Positions 12,459-64,000 of a stretch of DNA of 64,000 bases are shown one piece after another. The stretch is taken from IMG/VR virus record IMGVR_UViG_3300030523_000005. The stretch is one strand, 5' to 3'. Position 1 is the first letter of the stretch. Each line of letters opens with the position of its first letter. Under the pieces are notes generated by a model. The model searched no databases. It had not been told where the DNA came from and saw nothing but the letters and a program-made list of their open reading frames with translations. Source of the stretch: a virus. Made by a program: the position numbers and the translations under genes.

Positions 12459-12896
12459 ATGGACATTGAGCGGATCGCGCGGACATGCCACGAAGCCAAC
12501 CGGGCGCTGTGCCTGGCGTACGGCGACACGTCGCAGGTGGCGTGGGAAGACGCGCCCGCCGACATCAAGGCGTCGGCCATCGACGGCGTGGGCCACGCCG
12601 TTGACCACCCTGAAGCCACACCGGAAGATTCGCATCTGAACTGGTGCGCCTTCAAGGTGGCTGATGGCTGGGTCTACGGCCCGGAGAAGGACGCCGACAG
12701 GAAGACGCATCCCTGCCTGGTGGACTACGACAAGCTGCCAGCGGAGCAGCGAGCTAAGGACTATGTGTTTCAAGCCATTGTTCAGGCGCTGGTCTCGACG
12801 TGCGCGTCGCACGAGTGGCACAACGCGGGCTTCGACGGTATGGGCTGCCTGCGGCTGTATTGCCGGCAGTGTGGCGCGACAAAGAAAGAGTGTTAG
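12459..12896 (+). CDS. RyR-repeat-domain phage protein
   Basis: IARTCHEANR..SHLNW..K.ADGWVYGPEKD..KTHPCLVDYDKLP.EQRAKD. Confidence 0.85.
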   Translation: MDIERIARTCHEANRALCLAYGDTSQVAWEDAPADIKASAIDGVGHAVDHPEATPEDSHLNWCAFKVADGWVYGPEKDADRKTHPCLVDYDKLPAEQRAKDYVFQAIVQALVSTCASHEWHNAGFDGMGCLRLYCRQCGATKKEC

Positions 12897-12909
12897 GGGA
12901 GAGAACAGC

Positions 12910-13149
12910 ATGAGCAAGGATACGACGGTCACCATCGACAAGACCGCGCAGATCGCGCACGCCTTTACCTACCATCCTCCAAAAGAGGGCCAACCGGAAA
13001 AGTACACGCAGCTCCGCGAGAAGGCTAAAGAGTTGGCGCTGCTCATTGCTGAACTGACGCCGAGCAGCCGCGAGCAGTCCGTCGCGTTGACCGAGGTAGA
13101 AACGGCGGTGTTCTGGGCCAACGCGGCGATCGCGCGGCATGGCTCATGA
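12910..13149 (+). CDS. acb2: Acb2/Tad1-family nucleotide-signal sponge (anti-CBASS/Thoeris)
   Basis: FTYHPPKEGQPEKYTQLRE..LIAELTPSSREQSVALTEVETAVFWANAAIAR matches the family pattern. Confidence 0.8.
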   Translation: MSKDTTVTIDKTAQIAHAFTYHPPKEGQPEKYTQLREKAKELALLIAELTPSSREQSVALTEVETAVFWANAAIARHGS

Positions 13150-13541
13150 CGGACACGCGACGAGAGCGGTTAGCGGCGCTGGAGCACGAGCAATGGACTA
13201 TGTGGGCCGGCGACATCGCGTGCACGGAGGCGATCACGCCCGCGCGCCTCGCACGGTGGGAGCGGCTCATCGCGACGCCCTACGCGGACCTGACCGAGGC
13301 CGAGAAGGATCAGGATCGGGAGTGGGCCGACCGCGCGCTAGCGCTCCTCGACGTGGAGGGACAGATCGCCGCCGCCCCGTCGTTGGCGCTGCACCTGGTC
13401 GGGCGTGCGCTCGACACGCGGGCCGACGCGCTCGGCCGGGGCCAGGAGGCGCGGATGTGCCGCACGCTGGCGACGGAGGCGTACCGGCTGCGGCTCGCCG
13501 TCGTCGGCGCGGAGTACATCGAGAGCGAGGGATTGGAGTGA
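13146..13541 (+). CDS. RyR-like helical protein
   Basis: LAALEHEQW..W..PYADLTEAEKDQDREWA resembles the RyR repeat core. Confidence 0.55.
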   Translation: MTDTRRERLAALEHEQWTMWAGDIACTEAITPARLARWERLIATPYADLTEAEKDQDREWADRALALLDVEGQIAAAPSLALHLVGRALDTRADALGRGQEARMCRTLATEAYRLRLAVVGAEYIESEGLE

Positions 13542-13804
13542 TGGCTAAATACCGCAAGCGCCCGATCGTGATCGAGGCCGTGCCGTTCGACCCGCACGCC
13601 GCCGTGTGGCCGGCCGGCGTCACGCCCTGGCCCGATGAGCACGGCCGACAGCCCCGCGACATGAGTTGGGGCTACATCGACACGCACGACGGCCGGATGT
13701 CTGTGCAGGTCGGTGAATACATCGTGACGGATGCCGACGGCGACGTGTATCCATGCCCCGCGTCGGCCTTCAAGGCGCGCTACGAACGCGTGGAGGGCAC
13801 ATGA
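13541..13804 (+). CDS. Conserved phage protein of the KYRK(K/R)P.VIEA family
   Basis: KYRKRPIVIEAV..IDTHDG.M.V.VGEYIV.DADGDVYPC..F..RYE. Confidence 0.75.
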   Translation: MAKYRKRPIVIEAVPFDPHAAVWPAGVTPWPDEHGRQPRDMSWGYIDTHDGRMSVQVGEYIVTDADGDVYPCPASAFKARYERVEGT

Positions 13805-15610: not shown

Positions 15611-15862
15611 ATGTATCTGTCCACCATCATCGTCGGCCTGGCGCAAGCCGCGTGCGTCACGGGAGATCCCGTTTGCGAGAAGCTCAAAACCTACGCCGGC
15701 TGGATGCCCAGCTGGCTGCAATACGCGTGGGTCATCGGTATCGTGATCGCCGTCGTGATGGGCGTCATCGGCCATCGCCGCGGCTGGGACCACATGCGCG
15801 AGGTGATCACCGCGCTGATCATCGCGTCCGTCCTCATCAGCGGCGCGGCCACGTTCGTCTAG
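15611..15862 (+). CDS. VirB2/TrbC-like pilin
   Basis: 83 aa, two hydrophobic helices separated by GHRRGWDHMRE; first gene before VirB4; AGAAAGGGAG RBS. Confidence 0.65.
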   Translation: MYLSTIIVGLAQAACVTGDPVCEKLKTYAGWMPSWLQYAWVIGIVIAVVMGVIGHRRGWDHMREVITALIIASVLISGAATFV

Positions 15863-15884
15863 CATGGGGGAAGGGAGCACTCAC

Positions 15885-18800
15885 ATGGCCTATGGATGTC
15901 GGACTCTCGCTTTCGCGGACGACAAGACGCGCGTGCTCTTCGGCTTGACGGTACCGCAGACCGTTGCCGTCGTCGGCTCCTGGCAGGGCGTGCTGCATCT
16001 GGAGCCGCACCTGCTCGGCGGGTTCGGCGGCGTCGCGGCCGGCGGTCTCGTGATGGGGGTCTGCAAGCTCACCGACGGCGTGCGCCGGGAGGCGCGTCTG
16101 GCTCATCTCGGCGGCTACCTCGTGCGCCTCGTCCTTGGGGCCGGGAAAATCACGACGACGCGGCACATCATCCTGGAGGTGGACGGCTACACACGCGACG
16201 CGCTGACGGAGGATGAACAGGACACGCGTCTGGCCAACCGTCTGCAGACGATCATCGCGTCGATTGGGCCGGGTGGCGCCGCGCAAATCCTGGTCACCAA
16301 CAACGCGCGCGATCACCGCGCGCTCATCGAGGAGGCGCGCGCCAGCCAGCGTCCCCTCGGCCGAAACCTGGCCGAGCTGGGCGACCGCGCCGTGGAGCGG
16401 CTGGCGGCGCGCGGGATGCGCGAGACCGACATCCGGTTCTACCTCGTGCTCTACGAGCCCAAGGTGGCCCGCCGCGCGCCCTGGTGCCCGCGCCTAATGC
16501 GCCGGCTGCCGCTCCTCTCCCTCGTCGCGCGCCGTCTGTTCGGCGCGGGCACATCCTCTCAGCTGCTGCTGACGAATGTGGCCGCCGAGACACACACGCG
16601 CCTGCGCGCCATGGGGCTCTCCTCGCGCGTCGTGCCGGCGGTGACGGGTGACGACGCCACGGGGACCGCCCGTCCGCTGACAACCGGCGAGATGGGCAAC
16701 GCCTGCCGCCTCTCCGATGGGCGCTATGCGGCGAGCTTCTCGCTGCTGACGCCGCCCGCGCGCACCGATCCGGGGTGGCTTGATCGTCTGGTCAACCTTC
16801 CCGGACCGTATCGCCTGGCGGTGTGGGCACACGGCACCGACCCCAACCGGGAGCGCACGCGCCTCTCCACGCGCAACCGGCAGACGGGCTTACATCTGCT
16901 GACTGCGAGCGCCGGCGTGGGCGAGAAAAGCGCGCAGTTCACGGAAGCGGAAGAGGCCATGATGCGCCTCCGGCAGCCGAACCAGGCGATGATCAAGGCC
17001 GGGGTCTATGTGACCTGTATCGCGGATACGGCCGAGGACGCCATCGCCAAAGCCCAGCAGGGCGTGCTCGTGATGGCGTCGCCGGCGCCCGGCGTGTTCC
17101 ATCAATACCCGCTGGCGGCATCGACGCTGCCGGGGCATGACGCGGCGCGCTGCTGCTGGCGCATGGACGCCGAGACCGTCGCCAATATGTATCCGTTCAA
17201 CCGCACGAACCCCTCGACCGTCGCCGGGCTGACGCTGGGCGAGACCGACCGCGGCGAGCTCGTCAGGCTCGATCCTGGCGATGAGAGCCTGCGCAACTCC
17301 CTGGCCGTGATCTTCGGTCTTTCTGGCATGGGCAAATGCGTGACGCCGGACACCCTTGTGTGGGCGAAAGGGTTGCGGCGATTCGGGGACGTGTGGGGTG
17401 AGTCGTCGATCCAGGGGCCGCATACTGTTGACCATATCATCGGCTGGTACGACGATGGCGAGCGGGACGGCTACCGGGTCGAAACGGAGTCGGGCTTCGC
17501 GATTGACGGGACGCCCGCCCACCGCGTGTGGGTGCGCGACGACGATGGGTATGAGGGATGGCGACGCCTGGGTGAGTTGACGGGGCGCGAGTTCGTTGGC
17601 CTGGCCCGTGGCATGGCCGACTGGGGCGACGACGACATGCCGCTCGACGAGGCGTATGCGCTGGGAGTCGTCATCGCCGATGGGTGTTTCTCCGTGACCG
17701 GGCGGCGTCAGGCCCTCCAGGTGGACAAGCATCCCGTGGTGCTCGACGCCATCGCGCCCGTGCTGGGGCGCTGGCGCCACTGCGGCGGTAATCCGAGCGA
17801 CGCGGCGGTGACGATCACTCTGCATAACGATCGCCACGGGACAGCCAGTATCGGCGCGCCGCGCCTGCATACCTGGCTCGCCGACACGTACGGCCTATCG
17901 CCGGCCCACAGCCACGATAAGCACGTTCCTTCGTCCGTCTTGCGCGGCACGCGCCCCGTCGTGCGCGCTTTCCTGCGAGGCTACTTCGACGGGGATGGCT
18001 ACTGTAACACCCACGGTGGCCTACCGATTAACGTCGCGGTCAGCACCGCCAGCCCTGCCCTCGCCGCGCAGATACAGCACCTGCTCTTGGGCCTGGGGGT
18101 CTACGTCGCGCTGCGCTCCAAGACTGTCCCTAACCATCGGCCGGCGCACATCGTCGCCGTGCGTGACAGCGAGGCCTTCGCCCGCGAGGTAGGGTTCACG
18201 CGCTACGGCCTGCGCAAAGACCAGACCTTCCTAGCTCTCCTAGAGAGGCCGCGCAACACGAACGCTGATACCGTGCCGGGGATGCGCCCCCTTTTGCGCG
18301 CGGCGCGCGCCCAGGTCGATCGTTCCCATCCCGACGCCGCGGTGTGGGTCACGGCCGGGAGCGCTTACTGCGCCCCCAGCAGTACCTGCAACCCCAGTTA
18401 CGCAATGCTGCGCCGGCTCCTGCCCACGCTCACTCCAAGCTCCGAGCGATCCGAGATTGCGCGCATTATCGGCGAGCACCGGGCATGGACGCGCATTGCG
18501 CGGATCACGCCGTCCCTACAACGCCGGATCGACTGCGAGGTGGAAGGGTCACACGCCTTCGTGGGCAATGGGATGATCAACCACAACACCCTGGCCACGC
18601 AGAAGGTTATTTTGCAATGGCGGCTGCGTGGTGGGCCGGTCACGATCCTGGACCGCTCGGGGCACTACCAGTGGCTCGCGGACGTGATCGGCGGTGTGAC
18701 GGTCAGGACCGCCGACGAGATGGCGGCGCTTCCTCTAACCACGCCGTTCGTGATCGTGGACCTCACGACCAACGACTTCAACCCGGCGTTGCGCGCCGCC

Positions 18801-27053: not shown

Positions 27054-27725
27054 TTAGGCGGCGATGTCGTCGGTGAGCAACCCCTGGGCCAGCACGCAGG
27101 CGACCAACTCCGGGTCGAACTGCGACCCGGCCCCCTGCGCGATCTCCCGCAGCGCCGCCGCCGGCGTCAGCCCCGCGCGGTAGGGCCGATCCTCGCTCAT
27201 CGCATCGAACGCGTCGACCACGCTGACCAGGCGCGCGATCGCCGGGATCTCCATCCCCGCCAACCGGCGTGGGTAGCCTGTCCCGTCCCAGCGCTCGTGA
27301 TGCCCCCAGGCCGCCGCGCGCACGAGGGGCGACGCGCCGCCGCGCGCCAGGATGGCGCGGCTATGCGAGGGGTGATACGTCACGCAGGTCCACTCATCTG
27401 GCGAGAGGGCGCGTGGCGCCGCCAGGATGGCGACCGGGACCAGGAGCTTCCCGATGTCGTGCAGCGCCGCCGCCGCGTACACCTCGGCGATGCGTCCATG
27501 GTAGGGCTCGCCGGGGAGGTGCGGCGCGATCCCCGCGACGAGGCGAGCCACGCGCAGCGCATGGGCCACGGTCGCGGGGTGGTGCGCCCTCAGGGTGACG
27601 AGCAGCGTGGCGGCCAGGGCCAGCGACGCCGCGCCGACAGTGTCAGGGGACACGGGCGCCGTGGAGAGAGCGCGTGGTCCTGAGACAAAATCGCTATGGG
27701 GTCTATCGCATGTATCACTGATCAT
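27054..27725 (-). CDS. Stand-alone HD-GYP phosphohydrolase (start uncertain)
   Basis: HALRVA, ALHDIGK, HHERWDGTGYP, IARLVSVVDAFDAM..RPYR, GSQFDP. Confidence 0.92.
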   Translation of the reverse strand: MISDTCDRPHSDFVSGPRALSTAPVSPDTVGAASLALAATLLVTLRAHHPATVAHALRVARLVAGIAPHLPGEPYHGRIAEVYAAAALHDIGKLLVPVAILAAPRALSPDEWTCVTYHPSHSRAILARGGASPLVRAAAWGHHERWDGTGYPRRLAGMEIPAIARLVSVVDAFDAMSEDRPYRAGLTPAAALREIAQGAGSQFDPELVACVLAQGLLTDDIAA

Positions 27726-62155: not shown

Positions 62156-63751
62156 TCAGTTATCGTATCGAATGGCCGGATTTCGCGTAGCGAACACAAA
62201 CAGATCGGCGACCGTGACAATCTGTAGGCGTTGGTGGCTTGTGTGCCAGCCCGGCGAGGTGTAAACGCCGGCGGCGAGGGCCTCACGTCGCATCGCCGGC
62301 GTCGGCTCGTGGAGTGTGAGCAGCGCCGCCATCTCAGCGCCTTCGCGCTCCATGACGCCACGCAGCTCGCGCACGTAGGCCGGCTGCAGGTGGCCCGCCT
62401 TCACCGAGAGGACGATTTGCTTCGTCGCGCCCGTATGGTCGTCATGGAAGTACAGGCGGCCGTCGATGCCACGATCCGCGCCCTTCTTGTGGGCCAAGCG
62501 CAGCGTGGGTCCATTGAGGGGCCGCACGCTCTGGGCGTCGGCCAGGGCGCAGATCCAATCTTGAAAGCCGTGGGGGTCGGTCCGGGCAAGTTCGCACGCG
62601 CCGTCGACCGTCGTCGGCTCCCCCACGACGCGCGGCACGGGCAGATCCGGGTAGCGAGCGCGCAGCCGCTTCTTGATGAGGTTGATCGCCAGATGCGTCA
62701 CGTCGATGCCAATCCATCTCCTGCCCGTCCCTTGTGCGGCGTCAACGGTTGTGCCACAGCCGCAGAACGGGTCGAGCACGACATCGCCGGGGTTACTACT
62801 CGTTCGAATGATGCGGTCCAGGAGCGAGAGCGGCTTTTGCGTCGGATACCCCAGTCGTTCGGCGGCTTGGGATGAGAGTGGGGCGAGATCACTCCACATG
62901 TCTTGCAAGGCAACGCCGGGCATCTCGTCGAGGTAGCGTTTGTATGTCGGCATACCGCTTTTTGTGTAGATGAGCCGCCCGTCACGCTCAAACTGCTCCA
63001 TCTTGTGGCGAGAATAGGCCCAGTAGCGGCCCTTATAGGGGCGCACACCGTGCCAGTCATAGGACGTGTCGCCACCGGGCTTAGAAGCGGTAAGATTGTC
63101 TGTCCTGTAGCGCCGGCTCGTGCCGGGCTCGACGTGGCGGTAGAAGCGATCGAGATAGTCCGGATCATAGGGCGTATACTGCGGATTCCACGTCCATGCA
63201 GGACCTTTGGTGTAGAAGAGCAGCGTGTCATGGATGTGCCCGTATTGCTTGCGGCCTTGCGCCGTGTCGTTGTGCGCGGAACTGCGTTTCCATATGATTT
63301 CCGCACGATAATGCTCCGGCCTAAAAATGGCGTCGAGGAGCACTTTCAGATAGTGGCTCGCCGTGGGGTCGCAGTGCAGGTACAGGCTGCCGGTCGGCGT
63401 CAGAACGCGGCGCAGCTCGACGAGCCGCGGGGCCATCATCGCGAGATAGGCCATCATATCGCTATCGCCGAGCAGCATGTGCAAGGCGCGCATACACTCG
63501 GCCATGGAGCCGCCCAAGGACAGCATCTCGTGGTAGGCCATCACGGCCGCTTCGTCCCAGCGCCAGGTGTCGTCAAACGCCTGGAGCTGCGCCGGCGCGC
63601 GCCGTCCGTCTTGCGCGGCAAAGAGAAGATTGTAGGCGGCGTTGCTCTGGAATGGGGGGTCCAAATAGATGAGGTTAACGCTCTCCGACGGGATATATTC
63701 CCGCAAAATGGTCAGGTTGTCGCCGAAGTAGAGCTGGTTTGGCAGTGTCAT
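62156..63751 (-). CDS. N4/N6 DNA methyltransferase fused to an Mrr-like restriction endonuclease domain
   Basis: LYFGDNL, LIYLDPPF, GYPTQKP, VLDPFCGCGTT; C-terminal GADRGIDG..VLSVKAG. Confidence 0.9.
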   Translation of the reverse strand: MTLPNQLYFGDNLTILREYIPSESVNLIYLDPPFQSNAAYNLLFAAQDGRRAPAQLQAFDDTWRWDEAAVMAYHEMLSLGGSMAECMRALHMLLGDSDMMAYLAMMAPRLVELRRVLTPTGSLYLHCDPTASHYLKVLLDAIFRPEHYRAEIIWKRSSAHNDTAQGRKQYGHIHDTLLFYTKGPAWTWNPQYTPYDPDYLDRFYRHVEPGTSRRYRTDNLTASKPGGDTSYDWHGVRPYKGRYWAYSRHKMEQFERDGRLIYTKSGMPTYKRYLDEMPGVALQDMWSDLAPLSSQAAERLGYPTQKPLSLLDRIIRTSSNPGDVVLDPFCGCGTTVDAAQGTGRRWIGIDVTHLAINLIKKRLRARYPDLPVPRVVGEPTTVDGACELARTDPHGFQDWICALADAQSVRPLNGPTLRLAHKKGADRGIDGRLYFHDDHTGATKQIVLSVKAGHLQPAYVRELRGVMEREGAEMAALLTLHEPTPAMRREALAAGVYTSPGWHTSHQRLQIVTVADLFVFATRNPAIRYDN

Positions 63752-63906
63752 GGGGCTGTTATAGCCCAATAGGACAGGCGGGCGCAGTAGCCAATTGGCT
63801 ACTCTCCTCACCTCCATTCGGCTAGAAAAGGGCCGACGCCGTGTGTTCCGCATGCGACGCCCTAAGAACGTGTGTCGTTGCCCCCGCATAAAGACACACA
63901 ACACAA

Positions 63907-63937
63907 GCCGGCGCGGGGGAGTAGACCCGCGCCGGCT
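63907..63937 (-). terminator. Intrinsic terminator of a minus-strand gene beyond the window
   Basis: agccggcgcggg/cccgcgccggct followed on the minus strand by a TG-rich tract. Confidence 0.5.
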
Positions 63938-64000
63938 CACCGAGGGCGGCCTCCACTGAGGCAGCAGACGCGCGGGCGGGCCGGGGTGACGTCCAATACT

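Follow-up and report, generated by a model that had tools for sequence, protein, structure and literature searches.

We propose that the four small genes at positions 12,459 to 13,804 of the window (the whole 64,000-nucleotide stretch of viral DNA analysed here) are carried as cargo in an anti-signalling hotspot of modular design, in which ORF1 and ORF2 would cover two bacterial signalling systems whilst ORF3 and ORF4 would be exchangeable modules. We assign this reading a probability of about 0.7. The evidence is drawn from the variable content of the slot that holds the block, the close resemblance of ORF1 and ORF2 to experimentally characterised sponges, and the domain make-up and fusion partners of the families to which ORF3 and ORF4 belong.

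Organisation and authenticity of the block

The block comprises the following features.

12459-12896, + strand: ORF1, 145 aa
12459..12794, + strand: ORF1 residues 1-112, predicted RyR-domain sponge of the RyR Tad/RyDEP family (PF02026, gp68 alignment, dN/dS)
12795..12896, + strand: ORF1 C-terminal tail of 33 aa, Cys/His-rich and optional, no Pfam match
12910-13149 (12910..13149), + strand: ORF2, 79 aa, Acb2-family sponge and predicted 3'3'-cGAMP binder (PF24729, homologue 4, family profile, dN/dS)
13146-13541, + strand: ORF3, 131 aa
13146..13355, + strand: ORF3 residues 1-70, truncated three-helix RyR repeat ('mini-RyR'; profile and model)
13356..13541, + strand: ORF3 residues 71-131, conserved helical tail (93-96% aa identity; no Pfam match)
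13541-13804 (13541..13804), + strand: ORF4, 87 aa, small beta-rich protein of a phage family distantly related to PGDYG, candidate nucleotide-binding anti-defence domain

The tight coupling noted in the preliminary description is confirmed: all four ORFs lie on one strand, with a gap of 13 nt carrying a purine-rich ribosome-binding site between ORF1 and ORF2, followed by overlaps of 4 nt (ORF2/ORF3) and 1 nt (ORF3/ORF4). Around the four genes, neither a sigma-70 promoter nor a terminator was detected. Identical gene calls of the block were found on 13 contigs, and three loci fetched from other assemblies are base-identical to it across the available length; the block is therefore not an assembly artefact. 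Compared with diverged relatives, dN/dS ranges from 0.07 to 0.20 (0.13-0.16 for the RyR domain of ORF1, 0.07-0.10 for ORF2, 0.12-0.19 for the ORF3 tail and 0.17-0.20 for ORF4), and these parts of the block are under purifying selection; the figures exclude the N-terminal domain of ORF3, for which no diverged close relative was available.

A variable slot in a temperate phage

The window encodes a serine integrase, RecT, primase, terminase, portal, major capsid, tape measure and amidase, and to judge from these proteins it is a temperate tailed phage that also carries a conjugation module. The conjugation-like module, at 15611-26341 in a region common to L002, L033 and L035, encodes a VirD4-type coupling protein (PF02534, 23245-25170), a small pilin-like ORF and, at 15864-19400, a large ORF that is ATPase-like, contains a LAGLIDADG intein and is presumptively VirB4 (no Pfam match). 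Two further genes on the minus strand of the window are of note: a stand-alone HD-domain protein at 27054-27725 (PF13487 HD_5, 108 bits, HD-GYP-like), which could be another cyclic-dinucleotide antagonist, and a fusion of an N6/N4 DNA methyltransferase with an Mrr-like nuclease domain at 62156-63940.

The block is preceded by a DNA methyltransferase gene and followed by a conserved ORF and a sigma-region-4-like HTH gene. In relatives, the slot holds the following.

L002, L116: RyR only
L127: Acb2 only
L119: RyR-Acb2 fusion
L120, L124: RyR fused to the ORF3 tail, then ORF4
L033, L034: ORF3 tail on an unrelated N-terminus, then ORF4
L035: unrelated genes and ORF4

Since the content between the same flanks varies in this way, the four genes represent one filling of a hotspot and not a fixed four-part system. 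The RyR gene of L002 and L116 starts with the first residues of the window's ORF2, which suggests that parts are shuffled within the slot. The order RyR then Acb2 is also seen in two unrelated phages (L003 and L172). In the same region, relatives carry a YAcAr (PF10686) or DUF488 gene (L035:3332-3772, L033:376-876), possible further nucleotide-related accessory genes.

ORF1 and the RyR sponges

Two preprints of 2026 showed that RyR domains of phages antagonise Thoeris, acting either as sponges for cADPR or as glycosidases (PMC13232231; 10.64898/2026.06.04.730250). The sponge RyR Tad, gp68 of Pectobacterium phage vB_PatP_CB1, binds 3'cADPR at 43 nM, and mutagenesis identified H129, W132, K147, H154, K170 and D171 as its binding residues (10.64898/2026.06.04.730250). 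ORF1 matches the RyR family PF02026 with 47 bits (cutoff 27.4), is identical to gp68 at 55 of 110 positions (50% over 110 aa), and places H59, W62, K77, H84, K100 and D101 one-to-one on the six gp68 residues; all six are conserved at 98-100% in an alignment of 121 rows. The domain match and the retention of 6/6 tested binding residues bear out the description of ORF1 as an RyR-domain sponge. We consider it very probably a sponge for cADPR isomers on the strength of this alignment, and probably an anti-Thoeris sponge rather than an enzyme. Fusion to other sponges occurs in 6 of 119 canonical RyR relatives (five to Acb4, one to Acb2). ORF1 differs from gp68 in lacking the beta-rich N-domain and in having a short Cys-rich tail, which is kept in L116 (86%), is replaced or absent in L002, L119, L120 and L124, and is possibly zinc-binding.

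ORF2 and the Acb2 sponges

The preliminary description had also recognised an Acb2/Tad1-pattern protein in ORF2, and here the agreement is close: ORF2 matches the Acb2/Tad1 hairpin (PF24729) with 78 bits and shares 41 of 64 residues (64%) with the active Acb2 homologue 4. In the study of Hadary et al. (10.1101/2025.08.24.671296), homologue 4 was active against E. albertii 3'3'-cGAMP CBASS but not against Thoeris I/II/IV, cUA CBASS or either of two Pycsar systems; the similar homologues 20, 33 and 35 likewise blocked E. albertii CBASS. Ligand choice nevertheless differs between Acb2 proteins: within the same motif clade, homologue 27 inhibited type I Thoeris and cUA CBASS, and Acb2_43 (PDB 9PTQ), the nearest solved structure to the ORF2 family profile (E 2.7e-6), is a 3'cADPR binder (10.1101/2025.08.24.671296). 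3'3'-cGAMP is therefore our best guess for the ligand of ORF2 and is not certain.

Tad1 was considered as an identity for ORF2 and rejected, since ORF2 has 79 aa compared with the approximately 125 aa of Tad1 chains and the match of its profile to Tad1 spans no more than 20 residues (E 0.008). Tad1 proteins carry an additional N-terminal domain ahead of the hairpin.

ORF4, its family and its partners

ORF4 carries the KYRKRP.VIEA motif, as had been stated, and matches PHROG 419/1810/4502, whose function is unassigned. The family occurs in 316 GenBank records of phages, among them the SBSphiJ model phages, and comprises at least 2,354 long-form proteins; its Atlas clusters are without Pfam. The viral structure matches of ORF4 are named 'PGDYG protein', and its relatives have weak matches to PF14083 PGDYG that fall below cutoff (E 4e-5 to 7e-3); ORF4 itself does not match PGDYG, for which no function was found in the literature searched. 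The residues K6, T48, Y70, C72, F77 and Y81 are invariant. More than 10 conserved positions of ORF4 deviate from the family consensus (e.g. L49H, G64D, K73P, D75S and T80R), and most of these changes are common to the copies in L033, L120 and L124, which are themselves under selection.

The kinship with Acb4-type sponges that the preliminary description suggested fails, because ORF4 has no match to PF13876 at E<=0.1 and the profile comparison stays at background (hhalign probability 0.6%). Identity with Tad2 was rejected at the sequence level, as there is no PF11195 match and hhalign equals the reversed control (PF13876 is Acb4 and PF11195 is Tad2; 10.1101/2025.07.12.664507). PDB sequence searches with ORF4 and with its profile returned no match. 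The structural model (pLDDT 86) has no clear PDB match by Foldseek or VIA-align (best Z 3.2), and solved Acb4 and Tad2 chains are absent among the matches listed; the missing match does not prove a new fold. Homodimer prediction (score 0.25 against a mark of 0.42) gave no verdict and is not counted as evidence.

The beta-rich N-domain of gp68 shows motif patterns parallel to those of the ORF4 family, and hhalign gives 16% over 19 columns compared with 0.1% for the reversed control; this kinship is no more than a lead. Phage CB1 has an ORF4-like gene near 74.5 kb, outside the CB1 hotspot. The gp68 N-domain forms a small family of its own (L126:6143-6352, L293-L302), whose members often bear the wrong label 'decoration protein'; it occurs in fusions with RyR, Tad2 and Acb4 and, to judge from sequence patterns, with Sequestin-like and Acb2-like domains.

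The most informative property of the ORF4 family is the company it keeps. Among its 120 best long members, 17 are fused to sponges, namely Tad2 (12), the Acb2/Tad1 hairpin (3, of which the one rescanned falls below cutoff), Acb4 (1) and Sequestin (1). Sponges thereby account for 17 of the 36 Pfam-labelled partners and form the largest single class, drawn from four unrelated families. Recurrent fusion to known sponges was the criterion that led to Sequestin (10.1101/2025.07.12.664507), and the same recurrence is found in the ORF4 family. Of 83 dereplicated viral loci of the family, 8 also have a known sponge no more than 1 kb away (4 of them fused), compared with none at 1-3 kb, a zone holding 1.8 times more DNA (binomial p about 2.5e-4, for loci that are not phylogenetically independent, of which 1 of the 8 with a sponge seeded the Tad2 profile, and with no size-matched control family). 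The earlier supposition that ORF4 is a further sponge gains independent support from both the fusions and the neighbourhoods. Tentatively, the likeliest role for ORF4 would be to bind an immune nucleotide signal or to assist sponges.

The best-surviving alternative to an antagonist role, which we hold to be a serious contender somewhat short of even odds, is that ORF3 and ORF4 are ordinary accessory genes with no part in signalling, that the domain of the ORF4 family is small and promiscuous, joining many partners in variable regions of phages, and that only ORF1 and ORF2 are antagonists. ORF4, and in some cases the ORF3 tail, persists without both sponges in L033, L034 and L035; 19 of the 36 labelled partners are not sponges (YopX, PF04448, WDGH, MazG and others); the immediate neighbours at the 83 loci are a mixture of head, lysis and metabolic genes; and the gp68 N-domain, itself sponge-fused, had no anti-Thoeris activity alone (10.64898/2026.06.04.730250). 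Against this stand the prominence and diversity of sponges among the fusion partners and the confinement of nearby sponges to the first kilobase. The WDGH domain (PF25311) occurs fused with both an ORF4-family domain and Tad2 (P0289, P0332, P0335) and near an Acb2 gene (L150), and is another candidate sponge-associated module. Of the 58 families assigned to 150 ORFs that flank ORF4-family genes, the 25 listed include neither TIR nor SLATT. Literature searches on PGDYG or WDGH with phage, and on new fusion-derived sponges, found nothing new.

ORF3, a truncated RyR repeat on a mobile tail

ORF3 reads as a chimera of a truncated RyR repeat and an unrelated tail, such that its description as a second RyR-like protein holds for residues 1-70, whose family profile matches RyR structures at E 1e-9, and not for residues 71-131. 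ORF3 alone falls below the cutoff for PF02026 (E 0.057), which is matched at E<=1e-3 by 49 of 80 long mini-RyR relatives; the mini-RyR family amounts to 2653 related clusters, and the truncated variant is apparently undescribed. The mini-RyR model consists of three helices (pLDDT 94). In Foldseek all 50 PDB rows are RyR, none reaching E 0.001, and VIA-align to 3nrt gives Z 6.1 (rmsd 3.4, 66 aligned), tied with an HMG box. The tail shows its 93-96% aa identity to the copies in L120, L124 and L033, and these 62 aa are reused behind three different N-terminal domains, i.e. the mini-RyR, the full RyR domain of L120/L124, for which the mini-RyR stands in on the same tail, and an unrelated domain in L033.

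The pocket of the mini-RyR is partly retained. H14, W17 and D57 are kept and are conserved at 94-97% among 150 relatives, whereas equivalents of gp68 K147, H154 and K170 are lacking, so that 3 of 6 binding residues remain; in place of the hairpin loop, on which the counterparts of K147 and H154 would sit, there is a helix containing a conserved Arg-Trp, and the residue aligned to K170 is Q56. The first RyR helix, which serves dimerisation in RyDEP and RyR Tad (PMC13232231; 10.64898/2026.06.04.730250), is also missing, leaving three helices instead of the four-helix dimer architecture. Sponge fusions were found neither in 80 long members by Pfam nor in 150 members by local profiles. No known sponge was found within 1 kb in 70 viral mini-RyR loci, an insensitive test because the ORF2-family positive control scored only 1 of 68. 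The missing residues, the missing helix and the lack of fusions weaken the earlier suggestion that ORF3 is a further sponge. A sponge role, perhaps for another ligand, seems doubtful on these comparisons, and it is equally doubtful that the mini-RyR works as a cADPR sponge.

The same observations bear on the broader proposal, put forward in the preliminary description, that all four genes are signal antagonists, with the mini-RyR and ORF4 sponging further signals such as canonical cADPR or other ADPR derivatives. The replacement of a full RyR domain by the mini-RyR on one tail, the retention of H14, W17 and D57 together with tandem repeats in 9 of 150 members, and the fusion of the ORF4 family to four kinds of sponge would accord with it. 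We nevertheless judge it unlikely, in view of the three lost pocket residues, the rate of sponge fusion in the mini-RyR family compared with canonical RyR (0/80 vs 6/119), the absence of nearby sponges, insensitive as that test is, and the many conserved positions at which ORF4 is off its family consensus.

Proposed mechanism

In the modular hotspot that we favour, the block closes the run of replication-region genes in a temperate tailed phage, and its coupled genes would probably be made together during lytic growth. By extension from the tested protein with which it is 50% identical, an ORF1 dimer would trap 3'cADPR and 2'cADPR uncut in its RyR pocket and the Thoeris effector would be off. 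ORF2 would form a hexamer of the Acb2 type, sequester 3'3'-cGAMP and thereby silence CBASS, as extrapolated from its 64%-identical tested homologue. With ORF1 removing the cADPR isomers and ORF2 removing cGAMP, the Thoeris and CBASS effectors would stay off, such that two known sponge families would provide cover against both systems; any widening of the signal range by ORF3 and ORF4 is speculative. It is improbable that ORF1 is instead a glycosidase that destroys cADPR isomers, like the RyDEP of phage DyoEdafos, which hydrolyses 2'/3'cADPR (PMC13232231): equivalents of the catalytic dyad are present (H59, D101), but the non-catalytic sponge gp68 has this dyad equally, ORF1 aligns with 110 residues of gp68 at 50% compared with only 57 residues of the probable RyDEP chain (35TM), the eight RyDEP homologues tested included six that bound cADPR isomers, two that did not and none that cut them (PMC13232231), and no NARP1 genes were seen in a non-exhaustive scan of window proteins. 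The preliminary description had expected the neighbours to be sponges or signal-degrading enzymes; the expectation of sponges is partly supported, being right for ORF1 and ORF2 but weak for ORF3, and the block shows no sign of a signal-degrading enzyme.

Comparison with known systems

The sponge-and-module arrangement proposed here is plausibly a known kind of anti-signalling hotspot, directed against Thoeris and CBASS, with one plausible new sponge-family candidate. By sequence, ORF1 and ORF2 are ordinary new members of published families. The ORF4 family could, tentatively, be a new and widespread sponge family with a fold unlike that of solved sponges; that the mini-RyR is a second antagonist with a shifted ligand is less likely. 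If these readings were true, the block would counter three or four signals. The value of the block lies in two well-defined candidates, the ORF4 family with its Sequestin-like record of fusions and the large truncated RyR subfamily; the latter (2,653 clusters) could reveal how ligand choice depends on the different parts of the RyR pocket. The discovery of new sponges has helped to find hitherto undiscovered immune signals, and the ORF4 family, having no Pfam model of its own, could escape Pfam-based fusion screens.

Amongst the individual proteins, ORF1 shares with RyR Tad/RyDEP the domain, half of its residues over 110 aa and the six binding residues, whereas ORF3 lacks three of these residues together with the hairpin loop and the initial helix. 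ORF2 has the helical hairpin in common with Acb2 homologue 4, which is active on 3'3'-cGAMP CBASS; the Acb2 of PaMx33/T4 is remote and is absent from the PDB matches of the ORF2 family profile. Acb4 (PF13876; 10.1101/2024.12.30.630793) and ORF4 are both small phage proteins, and Acb4 is fused to an ORF4-family domain in P0373; it is a fusion partner of the ORF4 family, of which ORF4 is a member without being an Acb4. PGDYG (PF14083) is a label borne by relatives that match it weakly, whereas ORF4 itself does not match. As a whole, the block most resembles the anti-signalling hotspot of N4-like phages (10.64898/2026.06.04.730250), which is likewise a variable slot near replication genes with changing sponge sets and fusions; in contrast, the hotspot described here belongs to an unrelated temperate siphophage-like element with conjugation genes, and it adds two candidate domain types.
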